Positions 8,952-47,657 of a DNA stretch of 64,000 nt are shown here, piece by piece (position 1 is the first letter of the stretch; each line of letters opens with the position of its first letter). Source of the stretch: Hormiphora californensis (Eukaryota; Animalia; Ctenophora); assembly GCA_020137815.1 (NCBI GenBank), contig CM035354.1, positions 5,704,001-5,768,000 on the forward strand, given 5' to 3'. A program made the position numbers and the translations under genes. Below the pieces are notes generated by a model. It searched no databases, was not told where the DNA came from, and saw nothing but the letters and a program-made list of their open reading frames with translations.

Positions 8952-9908
8952 GAGAGAGAGGAAGGGAGAAAGATAGAGAGAGAGAAAGCTAAGATAAAGA
9001 CAGAGAGATAGCGTGGGGGGATATAGAGAGAGATGGTGAGAGAGAGAAGTAGGGTATACAGTGAAATAGTGAGACAAAAGGCGTCATCGGGATGTCAACT
9101 AACTCCCCGATAGTTTACCAGTACACATCACACACCCACCCACACACAGAGCTACATGTGAAGCTCCACCAAAGTTTGGAGAATCGGTGACCACCCCATA
9201 ACAAACCAATGCATCTCTTATTCACCTCAATTCCAAATTCAAGAACCACTTGCCTTGCTCGATGCTCTCTCACCAGCCACCACGCCCAGCGACGAAAAAA
9301 GCAAAAAACCGCAAGGAAGTAGGAACTGGTGAAGATCGTGAATGAATTGAAAACCATTCCATGTCAATTGTCAAGTTACCATTGCAACCGGTAATTTTAC
9401 CCACTTTATTGTGAAAGTTTTCAGTGTTCAGACTATCAGCCATCTTAATCTATCCATTTCTTCTGACAGTTATAAATTCAAACTATTACATCAGTCCATC
9501 GACCATCAGCTATCTAACTTGAATAATGGTCGATAATTTAGTTTCTCTAGTATTCTTTGTAACAAGGATTATTCTTCTTCAGAAAGTAGAAACTGCCATC
9601 CAGAGAAAATGAGAGGTAAAAGAAGAGAGAAAAGGACATAGATCTAAAAAAGAATATATGGGGGAGGGTGATAGAAAAAGATAATGGAGAGAGAGAGAGA
9701 GGTTTGGGATAATAGAAGATAATGGGTGGAGGGCTGGTACAATTTAGGTGTTCTTCACCTGCCAATGGGTGGACATATATTGCCTTTTTCACGTCCCCCT
9801 TGCTTTGTGAGGTAATACAAGTGGTGGACTATTAAAAGACTCTCTGTACTCGCGCTAATGCATTCCATTATACCATATATGGCTGGATCACTCCACAATT
9901 AACTGACA

Positions 9909-10584
9909 ATCCTCCCTCCCCTCCCCTGGTGTTTGCTGAAAAAGAACTCCCTCCCCTCCCCTGGTGTTTGCTGAGAAAGAACTCCCTCCCCTCCCCTGGT
10001 GTTTGCAGAGAAAGAACTCCCTCCCCTCCCCTGGTGTTTGCTGAGAAAGAACTCCCTCCCCTCCCCTGTGTTTGCTGAGAAAGAACTCCCTCCCCTCCCC
10101 TGGTGTTTGCTGAGAAAGAACTCCCTCCCCCCCTCTGGTGTTTGCTGAGAAAGAACTCCCTCCCCTCCCCTGGTGTTTGCTGAAAAAGAACTCCCTCCCC
10201 TCCCCTGGTGTTTGCTGAGAAAGAACTCCCTCCCCTCCCCTGGTGTTTGCTGAGAAAGAACTCCCTCCCCTCCCCTGGTGTTTGCTGAGAAAGAACTCCC
10301 TCCCCTCCCCTGGTGTTTGCTGAGAAAGAACTCCCTCCCCTCCCCTGGTGTTTGCTGAGAAAGAACTCCCTCCCCTCCCCTGGTGTTTGCTGAGAAAGAG
10401 CTCCCTCTCCTCCCCTGGTGTTTGCTGAGAAAGACCTCCCTCCCCTCCCCTGGTGTTTGCTGAGAAAGAACTCCCTCCCCTCCCCTGGTGTTTGCTGAGA
10501 AAGAGCTCCCTCTCCTCCCCTGGTGTTTGCTGAGAAAGACCTCCCTCCCCTCCCCTGGTGTTTGCTGAGAAAGAACTCCCTCCC
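9909..10584. repeat. 35-bp minisatellite, about 19 copies
   Basis: Unit ctccctcccctcccctggtgtttgctgagaaagaa in tandem with few variants. Confidence 0.95.
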
Positions 10585-11077
10585 TGTACCACTCAGTACA
10601 GTGTACTGTACTCCAGTATTATGAGAAGAGAGGGCTGGTGGTTCGGGTGACTGGTGTGGACCTACTTCTTGATCGTGTTGGTGGGGGTAGACGGTGCTTG
10701 TTATTGAGGTAAGTTGATGGGGGGCTGTTGATATGATGGGGGAAACAACACGTGTTGAATTTGGATTGATGAGGAATGTGACTTAAGATACAGATATAAG
10801 TTATTTAAACACTGAAGATGACCCTTTCGATGTATCATGGTAGTGCGAGTGGTGAAACTTTATACACCCCATTTGATAATAGGTGGTTATCGGTGTGCTG
10901 ACAGGTGGCCTCCATCCCCATTGGTCAACACTAGTCACGTGACAAAATTCCTGCAATTTCATTGGCTCATCACCGAGGATAGAGATGTTTGTATACACTC
11001 ATTAGCTAACTATGTAATGGCCTCATTATCTAATGAGCCCCGAGAGCAAGGGAGAGAGAGATGAGGAAAGGGATAGA

Positions 11078-11876: not shown

Positions 11877-12529
11877 GAGTTCCGACACCAGTGAAGGTAA
11901 AGTACATGTGTTTTTCTTATGCAGATGGTGTGCACTAAACATTCTATTATTCCAGGTTGAATTGCAGCCTTTCTTCCTTACACCACCCCTTCCTCATCTC
12001 ATTTTACCCATTCTGAATTCTCCCCACCCTCTCTCCCTATTTTCCTACCCCCCTCTCTCTCAGTATGTGTTACCCTGCAATTACAGTGATTAGATACAAA
12101 TTGAGAGGGACTACAGGTCCTTGAGACACCCCCCAGGAAGGGGGGGTCAATTAGCGAATTTAATTGCTCCCACACACACACACGAACAATTTGACATGTT
12201 TGACAGGGGTTGTCGGCTCGACTATTATTGTAAGAGAGAGAGAAAAAGAGGATTATAGATGAAACACATAATAACCCTCTCAGCTCTCTTTCAAAAAGAA
12301 ACATAACAACAGAAAAGGGACCACCTACAGTCTGGTCCACCAACCACCCCTTCTAATCCACTCCCTCCTACAAGCAATACTACTTACTGGAAATCGTACT
12401 GTATAACTGTTATTATTTGTTGGTTTTTACCTGTTATTAAAATTGAAAAGTCATATTTTGTAAGTGTAGAATCGAATGTGAAAACATACTATATTTTCTC
12501 AATCCTCTCTATTGTCATTCTCTAATTAA

Positions 12530-13807
12530 GGGTACACCTCGGCAAAATTTTTGTCGAGTGCCCGCTTAGCTCTCCATATGGGGTTGTAGGGCATACCAAG
12601 CCGACCTCAAATATGCAATTTTAGCCCTTAACTCGAATTCATATTTTTGCTACAGCCCCTCAAAGTTTGACCCTAAAAACCGGTTTTTAAGGTCCCTAAA
12701 TTTTATTTTTAGGGCTAGAAAGCTGAAAATTTAGGGATTCATAGAGGATACCAAGGTGTATAGCTCAAACAGAAATTTTTTGAAATGGAGCTCAATTTTT
12801 TGTCTGAGACTATTTTACTTTTTTTGACTTTGAGGTCATATTTGGACATGTTCCTATGGACCGTTAAGGCTAAAAATTGGATATTTGGTGCTCCTAACAA
12901 TTGTCAAAGTAGCCACAAATTTTCAGGAGGTCCGAATTTGAAATGTGGCCTACAGGTTTCTTTTTGTAAAGCACATATTTTAGGAAAACTTAAAATGGCT
13001 ATATCTCAAAAACGGTAGGTCCTAGCGATCTAATTTCGTGCTAAATCGATTCAGCGGGTCCGATTTTGGGGGGGTCGTCTCTTAGACATTTTGCTCTAAG
13101 TCTAACCGTTTTTTCAGAAATCGTATTTTAAGGTTTGTACATGTTTAGCAGAAATGCTTCTAGCTAGAGCTAATCTTACCTATTTCTGCTAAACATGTAC
13201 AAACCTTAAAATACGATTTCTGAAAAAACGGTTAGACTTAGAGCAAAATGTCTAAGAGACGACCCCCCCAAAATCGGACCCGCTGAATCGATTTAGCACG
13301 AAATTAGATCGCTAGGACCTACCGTTTTTGAGATATAGCCATTTTAAGTTTTCCTAAAATATGTGCTTTACAAAAAGAAACCTGTAGGCCACATTTCAAA
13401 TTCGGACCTCCTGAAAATTTGTGGCTACTTTGACAATTGTTAGGAGCACCAAATATCCAATTTTTAGCCTTAACGGTCCATAGGAACATGTCCAAATATG
13501 GCCTCAAAGTCAAAAAAAGTAAAATAGTCTCAGACAAAAAATTGAGCTCCATTTCAAAAAATTTCTGTTTGAGCTATACACCTTGGTATCCTCTATGAAT
13601 CCCTAAATTTTCAGCTTTCTAGCCCTAAAAATAAAATTTAGGGACCTTAAAAACCGGTTTTTAGGGTCAAACTTTGAGGGGCTGTAGCAAAAATATGAAT
13701 CCGAGTTAAGGGCTAAAATTGCATATTTGAGGTCGGCTTGGTATGCCCTACAACCCCATATGGAGAGCTAAGCGGGCACTCGACAAAAATTTTGCCGAGG
13801 TGTATCC
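12530..13807. mobile_element. Palindromic non-autonomous DNA transposon, Kolobok-like
   Basis: 626-bp arms (12530-13155, 13182-13807), about 3 mismatches seen, 26-bp spacer. TTAA on both flanks with GG..CC termini (Kolobok RR..YY pattern rather than piggyBac CC..GG). Confidence 0.85.
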
Positions 13808-14023
13808 TTAACATTACTTAATGAGTCTCCAATTACCGACAAAAATAAGAGAGAGAGAGAGCTGACTGATAAAGCGGGGGAATGATAATAATCCTCTTGG
13901 TGGCGGTATAATTATCATCGGAACACACTCTCTCCCTCTCTTTCTCTCTCTGAACGCAGCACGAAACAGAAAACAACCAGCACAAAACCTAAACATGGTT
14001 CACAGAACCTCTCTCTCTCTCCT

Positions 14024-17871: not shown

Positions 17872-33977
<16,106 letters not shown>

Positions 33978-34392
33978 GACAATCTTTAGTAGTCACTATC
34001 ATGTGTTATATTCCTTTCTTTGTTTGCTGAAAATACAGGCAGTGATTAGGACACTGATCTCTGCTACAGGTGGAAAACATGCCTGCCAATATCTTTCTCT
34101 CTCATTTAATCGTTAAAGTACAAAAATAGTGATCTGTCATTTATTTTTTTAAATAATAGAGTGAATTGTTGATGTCACGAGCGTATATGTTTTTGAACTG
34201 CATATTTCAGATAACTATATAAATTATTTTGTTAGCTAAAATAGAAATTGCAGTGCGAAAATGTTATTGTTGTAATAATACCCATTTCTAGCCAATATGG
34301 CTACAGATCCCTTTTTTGCAAAGTCTCTTTGTTTTGCGAACTGTAAAATTTATAGTTAACGTTTGAGAAAATCATTCAACGTGTTTTCATTG

Positions 34393-34618
34393 TAAAGTCG
34401 GATTTTTTGAAACTGTCACCCCCCTGAAATAACAAAATTTGCCATATCTCCGGTTCCTGATGAGATAGAGACTTGAAATTTGGAGGTTCGGAAGAACTTA
34501 GCAAGATCTTCGTAACCTCCAAATTTCAAGTCTCTATCTCGTCAGGAACCGGATTTATGGTCATTTACGAAATTTGAAAATACCCAGGGGGGTGACAGTT
34601 TCAAAAAATCCGACTTTA
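34393..34618. mobile_element. Foldback MITE
   Basis: TIR taaagtcggattttttgaaactgtcacccccctg and a near-perfect inner palindrome (ccggttcctga.gagatagagacttgaaatttggaggtt). Confidence 0.85.
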
Positions 34619-34769
34619 TAAATGTGTTCAATTTATTCAAAACAAGCTAAAAAATTACGTCATAAAAAGTGGCGCGCAAAAGAGACGCGCGCAGTAAATG
34701 CTTTTTTACGCGCGTTTTGAAATTCTTACATCTTAATCTGCATCAGCAAAAAATGGTCCAGCAAACCAT

Positions 34770-35345
34770 TTGGCATACGTTGCAGGCCCCTTATAATATA
34801 ATATAAGGGGCCTGGAGGGAATACCGCGCTAGGGGGGAATACATAATCAATCATATCTCCAGTTACAGATAAGGTACAGAAATCGTTTTGGTAGCGTTGG
34901 AAAGAGGAAGATAACAGCTTTCAAATGCAACCGGTTTCAGGTCTCTATCTTATCAGGAACAGGAGATATGAACCAAACTCCGCAAAATCGAGTGCGGTAA
35001 AATAAAAAATTCGAGATTTTAATTAAAATTTGAAACAAAGTGTCCCTGCAGGGATCTGTGACGTCACTTTTTGAAAACAACCAATCTTTGAACGGCTATT
35101 GCTCAGCCTCCTCAAGTCCAATTAACTTCTCTCAAAAACAGCAAGGTAGATAATTGTCAGATCTAACAGCTAGTGAAAGAATCAAGCAAAACGGACTTCA
35201 GGGGCCAAAGTTATAAGCACCGCCGTTTTTTCGACCGCAAAGTTATTTTCGACCCAGCCGGGCTCAGGCCAAACGCGCGCGCGGCATTCCCTCCAGTCCC
35301 CTCGTTGCGGGGGTGCGCGCATGAGGGGGCTGCAGCGCATTCCAA
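34770..35345. mobile_element. 576-bp MULE-like non-autonomous element
   Basis: TTGG..CCAA imperfect TIRs; 9-bp TSD gcaaaccat (34761-34769, 35346-35354); ends match the 79-bp copy at 47316-47394. Confidence 0.88.
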
Positions 35346-35846
35346 GCAAACCATTTTTTGTCACTTTTTTTCCACAAATCGTTTTCGGTTTTCCTCGCGC
35401 ATTCTCGTCAATATTGTAGGTAATATCGTGTGTTTGGGTCACAGCGGGCAGCCGGAAGGTGCCATTTTATTGTTAACATGATAAACTCTTTTTGAAATTG
35501 ACATTTCCATGCTCGAAACCCCACGCTTCGCCTCTCAGAACCAGAGAAAATTCGACAGATTCGTGTTGGCTACGCCTGAAAATTCAAATCTGGCTGCCGG
35601 AACTGCAAATATTAGGGAATTTAGGTACAGGGTGTTCATTTTGGATCTTTACAAGCGTTGGGCTTCACCCAGAAAAAAGTTGACAAGATTAGGTCATGAA
35701 ACTTCATACTTAGACTACTAGGTAAATAATTAATTAGCTAATTAATTAATTAGGTAACGGAGTTAGTTCAGCTCAGATTCCTGACTCCTGTATTAGAGGA
35801 AGTTACTTTTTATTTAACATAACTTAACACAGTATTTATTTTATAG

Positions 35847-36762
35847 GTAAAACTCTTACTGACAAGTTCCCGGAATTCATGGCAGACATTGCAATTCGAC
35901 CCATCCTCTCTCAGATACTTGTCCTAAAGTCAACTGCAACGGGACAAAACCTAGTCGTCGGGAATACCCATCTATTTTGGAATCCTGAGTATGCAAAAGT
36001 TACATTCCTGCACGCCCATGCGTTGTGCACCAAGTTACAGCATGTTAGAGGGAAGTTTGGAAATGCCCGGGTGGTTTTATGTGGCGATATGAACTCTCAG
36101 ACAACTTCACTTGTCCATGAATACTTCACATGTGGGCGTGTTCAGGCGGTGAGTAAAGTAGAAGTTAGTAACTATGACTTACTTAAACTGCATATATTAC
36201 TTACCAATTAATTATTGACGGAATTTTAATCACACACTACAATGAATCACACACTCTCTTCAGGACGGAACAGAGTTAGGAGACTTCTGCACCTCTAAAA
36301 TCCAGAATCCTCTGTCCCTGAAACTTGCTCGAGGGGAACCCAACTTTACCAACTATACAGCTGACTTTAAGGATGTTATCGATTATGTTTTGTGTGACTC
36401 GCAATCCCAGGTAAACTTTCAAAGTACAGAGGGAGGTACAGATAATTAATTAGGATCGGTTAATTGTTGGTTGGCAAATTCAGCTCAGCTGAAATTTTGT
36501 TCTCTTCTTCCGATTGGACGAGATGATTATGTTTTATTCGTAGTTGGACTGCTCCCCTTACCCCCTCCCTTTGCCTTGCTCGACCCTGTTTCACAACTTC
36601 CCTTTGCCTTGCTCGACCCTGTTTTACAACCCCCCTCCCCCTCAGGTAGTAGCTGTTACACCCTCCTCAGATATAACGGACCTGGAGAGGAGTGAGGGTT
36701 GTCCAAGTGAGATCTTCCCATCAGACCACCTCCCAATCATATCCGATATTGATTTTCCCTAG
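35847..36762 (+). pseudogene. PDE12: 3' fragment (3 exons) of a PDE12/CCR4-like EEP phosphodiesterase, 5'-truncated at the Helitron end
   Basis: Exons 35847-36148, 36264-36410, 36646-36762 encode NTHLFW, CGDMNS, FTNYT..FKDVIDYV and PSEIFPSDHLP; AATAAA near 36912; no upstream exons present. Confidence 0.75.
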
Positions 36763-37123
36763 ATAGCTACAGTGATGTCAGAGCTCGCAGATAATTTTAG
36801 GGGAGTGTGTGTGCAAGATTATAAAACAACTGATGAGCGAATTCTCTGTATTTGGTTTGTGCTTCTGATATTTATTCTGGGACTGTTTTACTTTTAAACT
36901 GTTTAGAAGAAAATAAATTGTTTTTTGGAGTCAATAATTGATATTGTATTGAGAAAAAATAACGCAACATATGAATTTTCCAGCTTCAACATCGATTTTT
37001 ATTTCAAAATATTTGTTTAGATTTTGGCTTGAGATTTTTTAACATATGATAGGGCGCAAATGACAAATGACAAAGGTCCCCTAATTAGGCACAATGTCTC
37101 CCTAACTAGGCACTATATGTGCC

Positions 37124-38798
37124 CTAATTTGGCACCATTGTGTAGACATGATTAATAACCGTGCACCAGTCCCGATCCTTTAACTGATATCGATTCTTGA
37201 TCACTTCAACCGCAGCCACAGCATCATGGAAATCCATGCCATCCGGCTCAAAAGGGTTGGGATCAATATAGGTCTGTCGAGCCACCATGTTAAACACTTT
37301 GATGATGGACGCCACGGCGGTTTCCTGAGTTTCCATGGTGGCCTGTACTTTATACCCTGTCAGGGAGTTGATAACCAGAACAGTGACACACTCTTTAATA
37401 CAGTTCATCTTTTGTGAGATTTGTTTGATCACTGAACCCCTCAATTCCTTCTTGCTCATCCGGCCATCTCCCTCTGTGTTCTCCAGAAGGAAGATTGTTG
37501 AGGTTAACATGGGTTGTCCAAATAACTTTGCGACGATGTCTAGGAAACAGCAGGTCAGTTCGGAGAGCTGGTTATCTTCGGTTAACTCAAGGACTATCCA
37601 AAACGAACTCATACCAAATCCTGACTTGTATTTTTTCTTAAACTTCAGGTGATTCGCCATGGAGATGATTTGATTTTGTGCAATGCTAACCGCGATCTTT
37701 TCACTACTATCGATAGAGGCAGACACATGGAGCCGCAAGCCCAACCCGTATACCTTGACCGCCTTTATTTGGCTATACCGGAGTTTGTCCTCTTTGATTG
37801 ACATCATTTCTCGTATCATCCTGCTCTCCTCACCCGTATTTTCCTCATTATTCAGCTGTAGGCTGTAAACACCCCGCTTCTCGGCGTAATCATTTCCAAA
37901 GATGTCCTCTATATCATTACCAACGGGGTTCAGAAAGCATTTGAATGCCATGTTACCCAGTTGTCGGGTTTTCTCCGTGCTTTTCCCAACCACCACCATG
38001 TCGCACCTTGGGGGAGTAGGGAGTTAGTGTTTTAGGGGAGGTCGGGGGAGTAGGGATTAGGGTGTTTTGTGGGAGGTCGGGGGGGTTTTGAGCAAAGTTG
38101 GTGAAAAATTTAGGAAACAAATCAATCACATTATCATGAAACTCACCGGTTTTGTATAAACATCTTGATTTTTGTAATGAACTTGTGCTGCTCAGACATG
38201 GGACGTCCCATGAACATATTCCAGTCATAGTCCTTCTCTCTTTCAGACATCATTCCTCCAAAGTAGTCAGGCATGTAGGCTGTCCTGGAATTAGGTTTGC
38301 TAAAATCGCTAATACTACAGTCCTACTTAACTTGTTCAAATGTTCAGACTGTCAGAGAATTGAAGTACATTATGAACGGTACAAATCACAGCTACTTGAA
38401 CTAACGATTAGTTACTAACCTGAATCGAGCGTTAGTTGACAAATTTCTCTGATCATCCTCTGCTTCTTCATTCCACAGTTTCACCTCATTCCACCTCCCT
38501 TCCCCGCTAGAAGTTGGATTTGTGGACTTGGAAGCCTTTACATTACCTCCGGCCTTTGATCCTTGTTGACCATGCTCAGTAACTGCGTTTTAAGGGAGTG
38601 TCGTCGTGGTCGATTCAGCTCTACGGTGCTGGTATATAGTCAACGAATAGCAAACAACACGATTTAGTAATGGCATGTTTTATGAAATCTCTTTTTGTAG
38701 TCAGTAACATGGCACCTGTCTGATAGAGCACTTAGGGGAATACTTTGGGCGAGGAGGGCGAGGTCGATGAACATTCGTTCTATGCTGGCGTCACTCAT
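37124..38798 (-). CDS. Uncharacterised protein with a degenerate AIG1/GIMAP-like P-loop domain (Helitron cargo)
   Basis: Confident exons 38284-38147 and 38006-37124 join in phase 2 (..MFIQNR|CDMVVVGKSTEKT). Candidate upstream exons 38798-38716 and 38628-38547 join in frame only through a weak acceptor at 38322. Family call is by eye from VVVG-x5-KT and FWIVL..LDIVAKLFG..TIFLL. Confidence 0.55.
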
Positions 38799-39231
38799 AA
38801 CTGCCATTCATTCCTCTCGCAATCACGGTGTCAACAGTTCAGCCAAAGAAAATCCGCTGTCATACCGGTCCAATCCAAGGACGGGTCAATCGCACGTTGT
38901 CCTTTCTGAGTTAGAGAATGATGTTGGTTGTTGTAACGCGCGGTAACATGCAGACAGGTATTCGCGCGCAAATTCGTCAGATCCGAAGAGCGCGCTTCTT
39001 CAAAATGTCAGGAGCGCGCGAAATAAAACATCCTCCGTTGTGATACTCCGCGCTGCGCGGCTTGAATTCGGGAAACAAAGTGGGATTTTGAACTAAAAAT
39101 CTGAGACTCCTGTGTCAGTTTTCTGTTTCTCCGTTTTCAACGTGCGTTTTAAGCTTATTTAAAGCGTTGTGACTTGTAGTTCCCTAAGCCTACCTCTTCC
39201 AACTCATTCACTCACTTAGGTCCACCACGGT

Positions 39232-39531
39232 ATGGATAACAAAGGCCTGTATGACACGGAGAGAACACAAAAATATCTAAACACCCATCAAATCCCTGAA
39301 ATAATCGAATCACTCCTCACGTCAGTTGCATTTTACCGGCCTGTGGACCCGTTCAGAGTCATCCTTCAAAACCTACAAAGGCTGAAAAATGGAGAAATTC
39401 CAGGTGCGCTTATTTGGGACAGTTTTATTGAGGAGTCAGATGTTCCATGTGAAAAGATTTTCAAACCGTCTTTTATCGAACAACATATTTTTGACAATCC
39501 ACTAGAGTACCCGTTTGCTGGGAACCCGTGA
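39232..39531 (+). CDS. Small RIIa/Dpy-30-type dimerisation-docking domain protein (Helitron cargo)
   Basis: KYLNTHQIPEIIESLLTSVAFYRPVDPFRVILQNL fits the YL..H.I..L..RP.DP pattern; acceptor at 39219; donor 4 nt after the stop. Confidence 0.6.
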   Translation: MDNKGLYDTERTQKYLNTHQIPEIIESLLTSVAFYRPVDPFRVILQNLQRLKNGEIPGALIWDSFIEESDVPCEKIFKPSFIEQHIFDNPLEYPFAGNP

Positions 39532-40492
39532 CCTGGTAAATGGTAATTTATCCTCATATAACCGGTGACATTTGTGTTTGATTTTTAAATGATAATTTGT
39601 TTGTTCCTTAGAGCAATGAGTCTCATAGTAGGAGCGGTTAGATCAGCACGTGCAGAAAGTCGCGCGCCACCCTAATCTCAGGTTACTCTACGGCTTCATT
39701 TTGCCATCCAATCCAAAAGGACCTTCATCAAACCTGTAATCTCCTCAAGGAGAAGCGAAAACTTGAGGGACATTTCTGATAATGATTGGATGCGACCTCG
39801 AGGAGATATGACAATGCGCAAAAAGGGGTGGCATGCGACTTTAACCACGTGGTGATCTAACCGTCACTATATCATACACCTTGGGTTTTTGAAAAAACGG
39901 CCATTACAATTTTGGCGAGGCGGGTAAATCATTTACTGTAACGCGCGAATTTTCCCAAAAAAGCGCTGTTTTTTACGCCGCGCGCGGAACCTAGAATTAC
40001 GCGCGCAGTGTAAAATTTTAAAATTCATTGAAAATTTCCTCGCGTTTTATGTCGCCAAAAAAAGTCGACGAAAAATTCCAAATTCGTGAATTTAAATTAT
40101 AAGAACTCCGGTTAGTTCTCATCTTGCCAATCCGTTTTCGGGAACCCTGGCCAAAGGACATTAAAATTCACATAGCGACCAAGTTTCATATCGATTGGAT
40201 AAGATTTTGGGTGGCTACGGTGAAAAATCGTATTTGGCATTTTTAACTTTCCCGACGCGATTTACGACCCTTAAACATTGAGTTACGGGAAATCACTATA
40301 AATAAAATGAAGTTCAAACGATTCTCTTTCCCACTATTGCGTTAGTTTTTTGATTTAGAGCCGTTTTCAGGGCTCTAGAAGCGTTTGAAAAATGTAGGTC
40401 TTTTTGTCGCAATGACGTCACCCCGTGACGTCACTGCTGTAAAGATCGGATCAAAAATCTGAGCCCGTACTTACATCCGCCTTGGTCCAAGG

Positions 40493-40852
40493 CCCAGTGG
40501 CTTTTTATAGCGAATGGGCGAATCCCATTCGCAGCGAGAAATTTGACTGACAGCAGAAAAATAGAGAGAAAAATCCCTGTTTTGCTTGCTAATGCTGCTC
40601 TCACACCTCATTAGTGCTCTTATGTGATCGTTACATGTTTAGAGAGCCACAATTGCTAGAAACGGGCACGGATTTCGATTAGAGATCCCAATTGTTAGCA
40701 GTTATTCCCGCTGCGCCAGCGGAATTACAGCGGAATGTGAGAAGAACGAGAGCAGAACGACTGCTGCCACAGCAGCAGCGACAGCGGAATGGGATCTAAT
40801 CAGGTTCTGTGACATGCGATTCGCAGCGAGATTTTTCTAAAAAGCCACTGGG
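40493..40852. mobile_element. 360-bp MITE with 8-bp TSD inserted in the Helitron core
   Basis: TIR cccagtggcttttta/taaaaagccactggg; TSD gtccaagg (40485-40492, 40853-40860). Confidence 0.88.
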
Positions 40853-41558
40853 GTCCAAGGTACCCGTGTACAAATTTTTAGGGGTCTAGCTCAAAAACTG
40901 TGGGAGGAGTTTGAAAAACCAATTAACGGACAGACTGACTAACATTATGGGATTTATTATATGGATTCTATACCCTCATTCAAGGTTCCTGGGGGTTTTG
41001 GAGCTTTAGGACCCCAGGAAGTGTGTTTTTGGCATCAAAACTACCAGAAGGAATTTTTTGCTGGTGCTGAGACTTTGCTAAAATGTTTTTTGGGTATTTT
41101 CTATGTCAATCCTAAAGTTTCATAGAGATTGGATGTGTTTTTCAGACTCAAAATTTCGATAAAAGTGGCTGGAAAGGCTCGAAAACAGCTCAAAAACGGC
41201 TAAAATTGAGTCTTTCCAGCCACTTTTTACAAAATTTTGAGTCTGAAAAACACATCCAATCTCTATGAAACTTTAGGATTGACATAGAAAATACCCAAAA
41301 AACATTTTAGCAAAGTCTCAGCACCAGCAAAAAAATCCTTCTGGTAGTTTTGATGCCAAAAACACACTTCCCGGGTTGCTAGAGCTCCAAAACCCCCAGG
41401 AACCTTGAATGAGGGTATAGAATGGTCCAAGTATGAAGTTTCATGACCTGATCTTGTCAACTTTTTTCTGGGTGAAGGCCAACGCTTGTAAAGATCCAAA
41501 ATGAACACCCAGTACTAGACATCCATAAAGTAATAGACTTTCTGCAATAGCTCCTACA

Positions 41559-44500
41559 ATGTCGAAGGTGGCAGAGGAGACTGCTCCAGACCGGGAGGTT
41601 AAAAAGATGACAGAAGAGGAGATAGACGCCATGGACAAATCAGAACGAGGGGCCAGGGGTGCACTGAGTCTGCTGGCTGTAGTGATCCTAAGTGCTGCCT
41701 ATCTGGTAGCGTTCTGTTCACGTCTCTTTGCCGTGATCAGGTTTGAGAGCATCATCCATGAGTTCGATCCTTGGTTCAACTACCGTGCTACCCATCACAT
41801 GGTCCAGAATGGGTTCTACAACTTCCTGAACTGGTTCGATGAGAGGGCCTGGTACCCCCTCGGTCGAATTGTAGGAGGGACAGTATACCCAGGACTTATG
41901 TTGACTTCTGGAGGTATTCATTGGATCCTACAGGCTCTCAACATACCAATCCACATCAGGGATATCTGTGTCTTCCTCGCACCCATCTTCAGGTTAGTAT
42001 TTCATCGCAGAAATGTTAATATATTGATGCCGTGATTGATATAAATTATGCTAGTTAGTAGATATTGGTGTTTGTCAGTTGATTCCATGATATAACGTTA
42101 TTCCCCACAGTGGTTTGACGGCGGTAACGACGTTTTTCCTGACCCGTGAATTGTGGAGTACCGGGGCTGGTCTTCTCGCTGCCTCCTTCATTGCTATAGG
42201 TCTGTGTGATGATTTGTTAAACCAAGTTTACCGAATTTTACCATGTGTGCATGTCTCCTGATCCCCTAAAATTTTGCCTATCTAGACTTTGGCACGCCCC
42301 GGCGGGGCGGCCCCGCCCACGAAACAAATGTAAAGGAGGGTTAGAACATAACAACTAAAATTAACTTTATATCGCCCCTAACATTTTCCCCTTTTCCAGC
42401 GCCTGGTTACATTTCCCGGTCAGTGGCTGGTTCCTATGACAACGAGGGAATTGCAATATTCGCTCTCATGCTAACATTCTTCCTATGGGTAAGTTTAACA
42501 TTTCTAATTATATATTACGATAGTGACATTGCTCAAGAAGTAACTTTAGTAATTCTAGCCACGAATATTCCCGGCTCATCTCCCCCACCCACTACTAGAT
42601 TCGAGCAATGAAGCACGGTTCGGTAATGTGGGCGGTACTGGCAGCACTCAGTTACTTCTACATGGTATCCGCCTGGGGAGGGTATGTGTTCATCACCAAC
42701 TTGGTGCCCCTTCATGTTCTGATCGTGCTGCTGATGGGGAAATACAATAGCCGCATTTATATCTGTAAGTTGGGGGCGGGATTATCTTCTAGTGGCTGTG
42801 TTATTTCGCCTAATTATTACAGAACTTCAAATAGTTTGAGTGAGTAGTAGCAACACCTCTCTCAAAGAACACTGTGTACCTAACACCCCCTCCTCCCAGC
42901 GTACAGTTCCTAACATTCCCTCCTCTCTCCTCCTCACAGCGTATAACAGTACCTAACTCCACTCCCCTCCCAGCGTACTGTACCTAACATCCCCTCTCCC
43001 CCCCCCCCAGCGCTCACTATCTAACACCCTCTCCCCTCACAGCGTACAGTACATTCTACATAGTGGGTCTGGTGTGTAGTATGCAGGTTCCCTTCGTTGG
43101 TTTCCAACCCCTCAGAACTAGTGAACACATGGCTGCATTCGGGGTGTTCGGACTAATCCAGATAGTAGCGTTCCTTCACTATCTGAAAAGTGTAACATCC
43201 AAGAAACAGTTTGAGGTTTGTAATTATATTTCATCCATGACACTGACTGACAAATTAAATTACAAGCCGATCTTACAGTCACAGACACACAATAATTTGC
43301 CGAAGTTAATACATACATTACATGTCTACTGTCACTACTCTCAACCCCCCCCCCCATTGCATTTTAGGTTCTATTCAAGACAGGGTTCCTATTGTCCGCA
43401 GTGTTAGGATTCATTCTCATTACCTGCCTAACCTGGGCCGGATACATTGCCCCCTGGAGTGGACGGTTCTATTCTCTCTGGGATACCGGGTATGTCACAT
43501 TTCATTGATGCCATTCCCTCTTCACACGGCTGCTAGTGTAGGGATGACTGCGTCACCAAGTGATTTCCCTGGACTTATTGCTATTAGCAACAGATTACAG
43601 AACAGGGTTAGCAACTTGCTAACACTGTTATATACCTGATTCACGTTCTATATCTAGGTGACTAAAACATTCCCCCATAATATGGGGGAATGTTTTAGTC
43701 ACCTAGATATAGAACGTGAACATATTATGTTTTCAGGTACGCTAAGATTCACATTCCCATCATTGCGTCTGTGTCAGAGCACCAGCCGACTACCTGGGTG
43801 GCCTTCTTCTTCGACCTCCACATCATGGTGCCTCTATTTCCTGCTGGAGCATGGATCTGCTTCAAGCACCTAACCCCTGAGCGTGTCTTTAGTAAGTCAA
43901 GAGAGAGAGGGGGTTACTTAACCCCTGAGCGTGTCTTTAGTAAGTCTATAGAGAGAGGGTTACTTAACCCCTGAGCGTGTCTTTAGTAAGTCTAGAGAGA
44001 GTTATATGGATAGCCGGAACTATGTGTTCTATGTATTACTAGACGAATGTTGAGGTGGGGCACACACACAACTACACACTTGCAGAGCTCGTTGTATTTA
44101 AAAAGATGAAATAGGAAACTCATTTTATATGCAACCCTATATATGGTAGAATTGGCGCTTCAACATTTTATGTTGCCCAACCTCTTCATGAGGCAACAAA
44201 GGGGGGATATTGTAGTAGGTGACCAAGCTAGCTAGATGGTTCTTTTATAAAGAGTTAATAATAAGATGAGTAGAATTGTATTCAAAATGTTAGGGTGATT
44301 CCCTATATACTGTAAAACCAGATATTTTCACGACCATTAATTTTCGCGATTCGATCAAAATTGACTATTTTCGCGGTTTTAATTTTTGCTAATCCCACTG
44401 CCACCCCCATTTCACGGTCCTAGTCTATTGTCTAATTACGCCAAGAGTGCAGTCATCATTGCCATGAGACACCACTCACCAGACCTGCATTGCTGATTGG

Positions 44501-46856: not shown

Positions 46857-47315
46857 CGGTCACAGTGACTTTAATAATTATTATATTTTCGATTACCCTT
46901 ATCAGCTAATTTAAGTTATAACAATATCTATGCCCTTTTTTCTTTGGTTTTAACTGATGACAGGGTGTCTGATTTTGGAGTATGTGTGTTTCTTACTCTG
47001 GCGTTGCAGATGTAGATTTTTTAGCAACACATTTTTGAAGTTCTTCTCCTTGTTCGCTGCTGAGTTCTTGTTAACCAAATTGAGATGAGGTTGTGCTTAA
47101 TTTGTTTGGGTGGAATAATGGAACATTGCCCATCTGTAAAATGAACGGGTGAACCAATGACAAACTTAGTAATTTTCAGTACTTGGTTACGCGCGAAATA
47201 ATTAAGAAAGCGCCGCGTAAAGACGCGCGATTGCGCGCGAATGAATTTAATTTTCAAAATTAAAAAGTTTTTTTCCCAACATTTTAAAATCACAAAAACA
47301 AGTTCTCTGTTTTTG

Positions 47316-47394
47316 TTGGAATGCGCTGCAGCCCCCTCATGCGCGCACCCCCGCAACTTATATTATATTATAAGGGGCCTGCAACGTATGCCAA
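47316..47394. mobile_element. 79-bp MULE-like mini-element
   Basis: 9-bp TSD ctgtttttg (47307-47315, 47395-47403); internally deleted, inverted copy of 34770-35345. Confidence 0.9.
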
Positions 47395-47657
47395 CTGTTT
47401 TTGCCGTTTGCGTCTCGTGTTTGCCAAATGCCATCGTTTTTCCGGTGTGCTGTGTTCACTTCTTAATTGATTCATAACATGTCCTAACATGATTCAAATG
47501 CTTATGAATAGCTTAAAATCAGATTTATTGAGTTTAATTTGAAAAATACTTAAATTTATAACTTGGATCCTTTTGGCATGGTTTCAGTTTCCAAATCAGC
47601 TATTCTCCCGAGTGTCAGATATCACATAACTCTGTTAGGTTCAGCTATGATGTAAGT

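Follow-up and report, generated by a model that had tools for sequence, protein, structure and literature searches.

End-bypass, in which a Helitron misses its own 3′ end and carries adjoining host DNA along, is a known mechanism, described for the engineered element Helraiser, in bats and in maize. In the sections of the Helraiser report that deal with bypass, capture of a 1.6-kb cassette accounted for ~11.7% of events, and for at least 36% once the hairpin was absent; the new ends lacked palindromes (PMC4778049). Among the bat cases set out in the relevant part of a survey of captured genes, 3 had a related Helitron detected next to the parent gene and 26 did not (PMC4224331). Here we describe an insert in a 64,000-nucleotide (nt) stretch of the ctenophore Hormiphora californensis (GenBank assembly GCA_020137815.1, contig CM035354.1, positions 5,704,001 to 5,768,000 of the forward strand; hereafter the window, in which all positions are given), where a non-autonomous Helitron residing in an F-box/leucine-rich repeat (LRR) gene probably bypassed a weak terminator, stopped at a host CTAG and inserted as a 5,248-bp unit. 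What is new at this locus is not the mechanism but an unusually complete record of one event, whose start, putative missed end with its old target base, host-derived new end and empty-site control all lie within 6 kb; natural bypass cases seldom retain such evidence, the mechanism having been accepted from cell-culture work.

The insert (35718–40965) is flanked by two plus-strand genes, an EML-like one that ends at ~33978 and an STT3 gene that starts at 41559; it occupies an A|T site ~0.6 kb upstream of STT3 and 90 bp into one arm of a Tc1/mariner-type foldback, a miniature inverted-repeat transposable element (MITE). The plus strand reads a TA target site and the first 90 bp of the left arm (35626–35717), then the insert, then the 215-bp remainder of the left arm, a 27-nt loop, the intact 305-bp right arm and a second TA (40966–41514), with the TA flanks at 35626–35627 and 41513–41514. 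The two left pieces, 35628–35717 and 40966–41180, add up to a 305-bp arm that aligned without gaps to the reverse complement of 41208–41512 with 14 mismatches, a divergence of 4.6% (14/305), and comparison of the window with itself returned the arms 40965–41180 and 41208–41423 as well as a separate 91-bp match between 35625–35715 and 41425–41515. With the opposite arm as the uninterrupted site, the insert is a real and clean insertion of 5,248 bp without target-site duplication, which upholds both the 90 + 215 bp arithmetic and the internal empty-site control proposed in a first-pass annotation of this sequence. Read on the minus strand, the insert has the form A|TC...CTAG|T, its 5′ TC joined to the target A at 40964–40966 and its junctions ambiguous by one base (A). 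At a random breakpoint these end motifs would occur jointly with a chance of ~1e-5, or 2.5e-5 allowing either orientation, given the base frequencies of the window.

The insert comprises a 1,464-bp Helitron-like core (39502–40965, minus strand), which is high-copy and composite, and 3,784 bp of host DNA. To delimit the core we used public DNA contigs from three runs (X1, X5 and X6) of two samples, taking the longest eight pieces per run of more than 32,000 (the listed contigs), together with contig depths, which carry a two- to three-fold noise and, by the tool's own warning, are no copy numbers. In all three runs, depth rose from 374–836 in bin 39058–39338 to 25,657–85,493 in bin 39339–39619, and the core bins ranged from 25,000 to 200,000 compared with ~300–900 in genes. 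This jump coincided at 39502 with the termination of a listed X1 contig at 39501, with the departure of a 782-nt X5 contig that matched 39043–39501 and whose remaining 323 nt were not placed on the window, and with the point at which tblastn homology stopped. Given the depth jump, the contig breaks at 39501 and a CTAG|T at 39502, we placed the core at 39502–40965 rather than within the ~0.87 kb (~40097–40965) to which the transposon had first been assigned. The native 3′ end (39501–39505, minus strand) would have been bypassed with its former target base kept, and is preceded by a weak hairpin of −2.4 kcal/mol. On the element strand, CTAG is followed by T at three of the 11 CTAG sites of the insert (35718, 37106 and 39502), so that a 3′ CTRR with target T is found at the outer end, 35718, and internally at 39502. 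With its 5′ TC after A, its CTAG|T and the lack of a duplication, the core is a canonical non-autonomous Helitron in its termini and target.

The core contained no RepHel (HUH nuclease plus helicase) open reading frame (ORF) and no ORF longer than 65 codons within 39502–40965, so that a transposase would be needed from elsewhere. Contigs that connect position 39548 with 39923 and 39636 with 39904 reveal the composite nature of the core, as does a nested MITE or inverted repeat at 39635–39863. The CGCG blocks at ~39920–40060, initially taken as promoter-like genic DNA, fell within the high-copy repeat, outside the genic cargo. A hairpin at 40094–40116 was rejected as the 3′ end of the element, being followed by no CTRR and by high depth that runs on to 39502. 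The segment 40123–40147 resembles the native end at 39502–39527, with CAAG instead of CTAG (23 of 1,000 shuffles scored as well), and a loose-end consensus from X5 comes nearer still to this likeness; it is perhaps an older bypassed 3′ terminus, a weak lead drawn from base similarity.

Immediately beyond the native end, on the plus strand, lie the first 90 codons (39232–39501) of a ~770-aa gene with an RIIa/Dpy-30-like domain, an F-box and LRRs, which we take to be FBXL13/DRC6-like. A 99-codon ORF starting at 39232 runs into the element for nine codons and ends at a stop at 39531. It had 21 protein matches at E values up to 0.001, and the best three, of 770, 276 and 767 aa, all carry F-box domains, with LRRs in both long ones, and aligned only up to query residue 91. 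By tblastn, homology to P0021 and P0023 stopped at 39501 and that to P0022 one codon further, at 39504. Following the shared FDNP, P0021 and P0022, the two closest homologues, have Phe, and P0023 has Ala; since Phe codons start with T, the former site at 39501/39502 probably read CCA|T, which is an A|T target of the Helitron kind. What had been annotated as an RIIa-like ORF is thus the 5′ piece of a host gene truncated by the core, with the old target base apparently retained inside the insert. A search for homologues of near-equal length to the ORF returned nothing, because its relatives are long, and EFCAB10, its best PDB match (E 0.006), was replaced by the F-box/LRR homologues.

At the other end of the cargo, the plus strand carries the 3′ part of a PDE12-like gene (35718–36762) in exon pieces 35718–35721, 35847–36148, 36264–36410 and 36646–36762. 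Taking 35718–35721 as an exon end followed by a GT-AG intron, the spliced model stays open for 189 codons and reads L-G-K-T, and matched P0001 at 159 of 171 residues, from P0001 residue 525 onward. The protein closest to the cargo PDE12 is a full-length one from the ctenophore Pleurobrachia bachei (94% identity), and the 5′ part with the first motifs of the catalytic domain had no match in the 64-kb window. Because the spliced model reads as P0001, the terminal CTAG belongs to a host exon and the adjacent palindrome to an intron: the de novo 3′ end of the element (35718–35721, minus strand) corresponds on the plus strand to the last four nt of a PDE12 exon, a Leu codon plus the first base of Gly, followed by the GT donor. 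The PDE12-like exons proposed in the first-pass annotation were confirmed by this model, whereas the cut is exonic, 4 nt before the GT donor, and not mid-intron as had been assumed. The palindrome (35727–35748, minus strand) is AT-only, 22 nt long with a 9-bp stem of −4.0 kcal/mol, and lies 5 nt before the terminal CTAG, whereas the canonical arrangement is a 16–20-nt hairpin ~11 nt before the 3′ end. As 10% of 370 cargo 40-mers folded as well, it carries little weight and is no evidence on its own; a role as cryptic terminator is conceivable, the evidence for it being weak.

Between the two fragments, the minus strand holds a near-complete gene (37124–38582; exons 38582–38420, 38284–38147 and 38006–37124) with 393 open codons, the start codon of which was not pinned down in the model. 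It had 17 homologues (P0003–P0019), with which it makes up an unannotated family marked by a highly conserved C-terminal motif. Those of full length have ~380–430 aa, no Pfam domain is recorded for any of the 17, and both of the homologues for which a source was checked or inferred come from ctenophores. Pfam and PDB sequence searches with the protein gave no match. A Foldseek search with its predicted structure (mean predicted local distance difference test score, pLDDT, 68.6) returned GIMAP7 (E 8e-6) and Toc34 (E 2e-4) as top matches at template-modelling scores of ~0.41–0.46, so the gene is AIG1/GIMAP-like in fold; the AIG1-like label given earlier is therefore kept as a structural one, with no counterpart in the sequence searches. 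Its P-loop is degenerate: GKS/T, the motif of P-loops, is absent at this position from every aligned homologue that covers it. Scanning metagenomes with the AIG1-like alignment produced 36 pattern matches, none of which was confirmed as a locus. Upstream, the AIG1-like and F-box/LRR genes face each other head to head across a low-depth region (38583–39231), which, judging from gene orientation, would hold the promoters of both. An RNA run (X21) yielded a single record, on a repeat, leaving cargo and STT3 uncovered, and is thus silent on expression.

The cargo is therefore a colinear, intron-bearing block adjoining the native 3′ end, which is the geometry that end-bypass predicts: the cargo abuts the native end and the new end is host-derived. 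The first-pass annotation had envisaged read-through of about three neighbouring genes, and the CTAG and A|T base at 39501/39502, where the host gene is cut, speak for such a bypass; the 3,784 bp carried along are nevertheless one near-complete gene and two gene fragments rather than three genes. We propose the following course. As homologues and contigs suggest, the donor locus would have had the gene order PDE12 (plus), AIG1-like (minus) and F-box/LRR (plus), and the core would first have entered its F-box/LRR gene, at an A|T that separates codon 90 from codon 91. By analogy with Helraiser, a RepHel transposase supplied in trans would have nicked the 5′ TC and displaced the strand, missing the CTAG at 39502 and then passing the second CTAG|T at 37106. 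Displacement would have stopped at the exonic CTAG at 35718, an end point read from the junction, just past the intronic AT palindrome, to which the stop may be due. The whole unit would then have integrated at the A|T of the foldback without duplication, as its junctions record.

Several observations weigh against this reading. The CTAG|T at 37106 has a stronger hairpin (−6.7 kcal/mol) than either the AT/GC-mixed native one (−2.4) or the far-end palindrome (−4.0), both of them weak, yet would have been passed. The edge of the core is sharp in depth at 39502, but the bin of the 5′ end also includes the foldback arm and does not place that edge at base level; a metagenome pattern scan for the core 5′ terminus gave 0 matches, and no RepHel partner for the core was seen in the window data. 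Cargo depth was not above that of STT3 or EML in any run (in X1, unique cargo bins were mostly 374–1,149, STT3 330–914 and the EML 3′ end 665) and no third copy was visible, nor was an intact donor PDE12 of H. californensis seen in the data examined. Finally, none of the listed contigs bridged either outer junction or 39501/39502, and no donor-locus sequence upstream of the terminal CTAG was seen.

These points bear on three other explanations. Gap repair would yield the same final sequence if copies of the core resided both in the foldback arm and in the F-box/LRR gene, and the former copy broke and was mended with the latter as template, with synthesis running into the donor flank and rejoining via 4–5 nt at CTAG. 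The core is indeed high-copy, and capture of filler DNA with 2–13-bp junctions is described in the pertinent part of a report on insect Helitrons; the filler described there, however, sits inside the element and not beyond its 3′ end (PMC6544945). Gap repair further requires two independent insertions, and a rejoining that hits the last four bases of the element exactly, and we consider it unlikely. As both routes make predictions for one and the same place, this single locus makes bypass versus gap repair directly testable.

The lack of a depth excess of the cargo over its flanking genes would also be expected if the block had been moved rather than copied, by excision or rearrangement at Helitron ends, leaving a haplotype without an intact donor. 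This depth argument is noisy by two- to three-fold, however, an X5 contig runs beyond 39501 into other sequence, and the X1 break there suggests that one sample holds both forms; in addition, the circles reported for Helraiser, as far as that account describes them, point to replicative transposition (PMC4778049), making a moved block very unlikely. In a repeat-rich genome, and with no bridging record among those listed, the assembly could be a chimera in which repeats linked the donor locus with that of STT3. Jumping across the core could account only for the right junction, though, while at the left one the foldback arm passes into unique exon sequence, with no more than five bases shared, exactly at the base that completes the 305-bp arm, so we regard a chimera as very unlikely.

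If the insert arose by end-bypass as proposed, it likely did so very recently. Over the listed cargo contigs, mismatches to the window numbered 3 in 1,581 for X1 (0.19%), 5 in 1,883 for X5 (0.27%) and 12 in 1,607 for X6 (0.75%), with 1, 1 and 24 gap letters, respectively, giving identities of 99.3–99.8% across two samples, compared with the 4.6% divergence of the foldback arms; a related ctenophore has ~2% single-nucleotide heterozygosity, according to the portion of its genome report concerned (PMC8527503). At 36289 and 39269, all three runs differ from the window base, and at 36289 their T gives Phe, as in P0001, where the window encodes Cys; these shared differences fit a young minority copy or assembly errors. 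A possible sign of the donor is the X5 contig, which continues past 39501 into Helitron-free sequence. More tentatively, and with the balance somewhat against it, one very recent rolling-circle event may have duplicated a whole promoter-bearing gene, starting from a Helitron whose insertion had disabled a ciliary F-box/LRR gene on a donor allele of low frequency. In that case the copy carried along would preserve, as a fossil, an allele now purged or rare, and insertion and donor would still segregate in the wild. If so, end-bypass could be traced allele by allele in nature.

The STT3 contigs (41613–42273) in X5 and X6 were ~4–7% off the window (39/650 in X5), most of the differences forming a regular third-position pattern, while the flank 35345–35650 is identical; the divergence could be that of a deeply diverged allele or of a second STT3 copy. 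We dropped the argument that the missing window STT3 allele in X5 and X6 proves sample S2 to lack the haplotype, because the filter removes conserved-gene records, and X1 shows such a hole.

The window as a whole is eukaryotic, with short introns, and holds other repeats. Further foldbacks lie at 29646–31216, 12526–13811, 34390–34621 and 43640–43720, including arms of 768 and 630 nt; they are mostly intronic, and that at 29646–31216 is TA-flanked like the one hosting the insertion. A second nested insertion also has its empty site in the window: 34763–34807 plus 35304–35350 match the uninterrupted 47401–47312 (minus strand), the nested insert of ~500 bp is bounded by inverted ends of 24 nt, and position 34793 is connected with 35302 in contigs. 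Of the two repeat copies, 34763–35350 is located upstream of STT3 and 47312–47401 upstream of a gene with a CH domain, presumably IQGAP-like. A short high-copy family (36566–36631, 42287–42354 and 29510–29603) has conserved ends near 36571 and 42354, which many contigs join with few variable letters between. Tandem arrays were found at 9814–10689 (35-bp units), 18523–19115 (coding-like units of 15–33 bp and 9–18 bp), 25628–25814 (18-bp units) and 28340–28563 (a 112-bp duplication).

The event described here brought 5.2 kb of DNA, with two likely promoters, close to the upstream side of STT3, and would extend gene capture by Helitrons to ctenophores: a literature search combining Helitron or rolling-circle with ctenophore, with most subscription journals outside its reach, returned no report of gene capture in the phylum. 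Helentron/DINE-1 elements, of the Helitron2 type, have sub-terminal inverted repeats and TT targets. The H. californensis element shares with them its non-autonomous rolling-circle character, a tie to gene duplicates and a short GTCY-type repeat near one end, but differs in its TC/CTAG ends and AT target.

The closest likeness is to 3′ transduction by Helraiser/Helibat1, which, in the parts of the study that cover it, shows the same 5′-TC, CTAG-3′ and A|T target without duplication, and a right end that is bypassed in favour of a new one further downstream, for which a good palindrome is not needed (PMC4778049). In contrast to that engineered system with its 1.6-kb test cassette, the present case is natural, with a non-autonomous core, 3.78 kb of cargo and a weak, AT/GC-mixed native hairpin. 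In the compound bat Helitrons of the HelibatN539 type, host DNA beside a Helitron was likewise captured by end bypass; the new 3′ end described for them comes from a second Helitron, whereas here it comes from a host exon, and in comparison with the bat cases as presented the former insertion site is retained inside the cargo (PMC4224331). The gene-carrying maize Helitrons with multiple termini resemble the H. californensis insert in that a single element combines parts of several genes with a 3′ terminus in its interior. In the maize sample reported, however, 99 of 100 internal termini lacked an intact CTAG, and capture is described as stepwise from scattered genes (PMC3288121); here, by contrast, the insert has kept its internal CTAG|T intact, and its cargo has the look of a single contiguous block.

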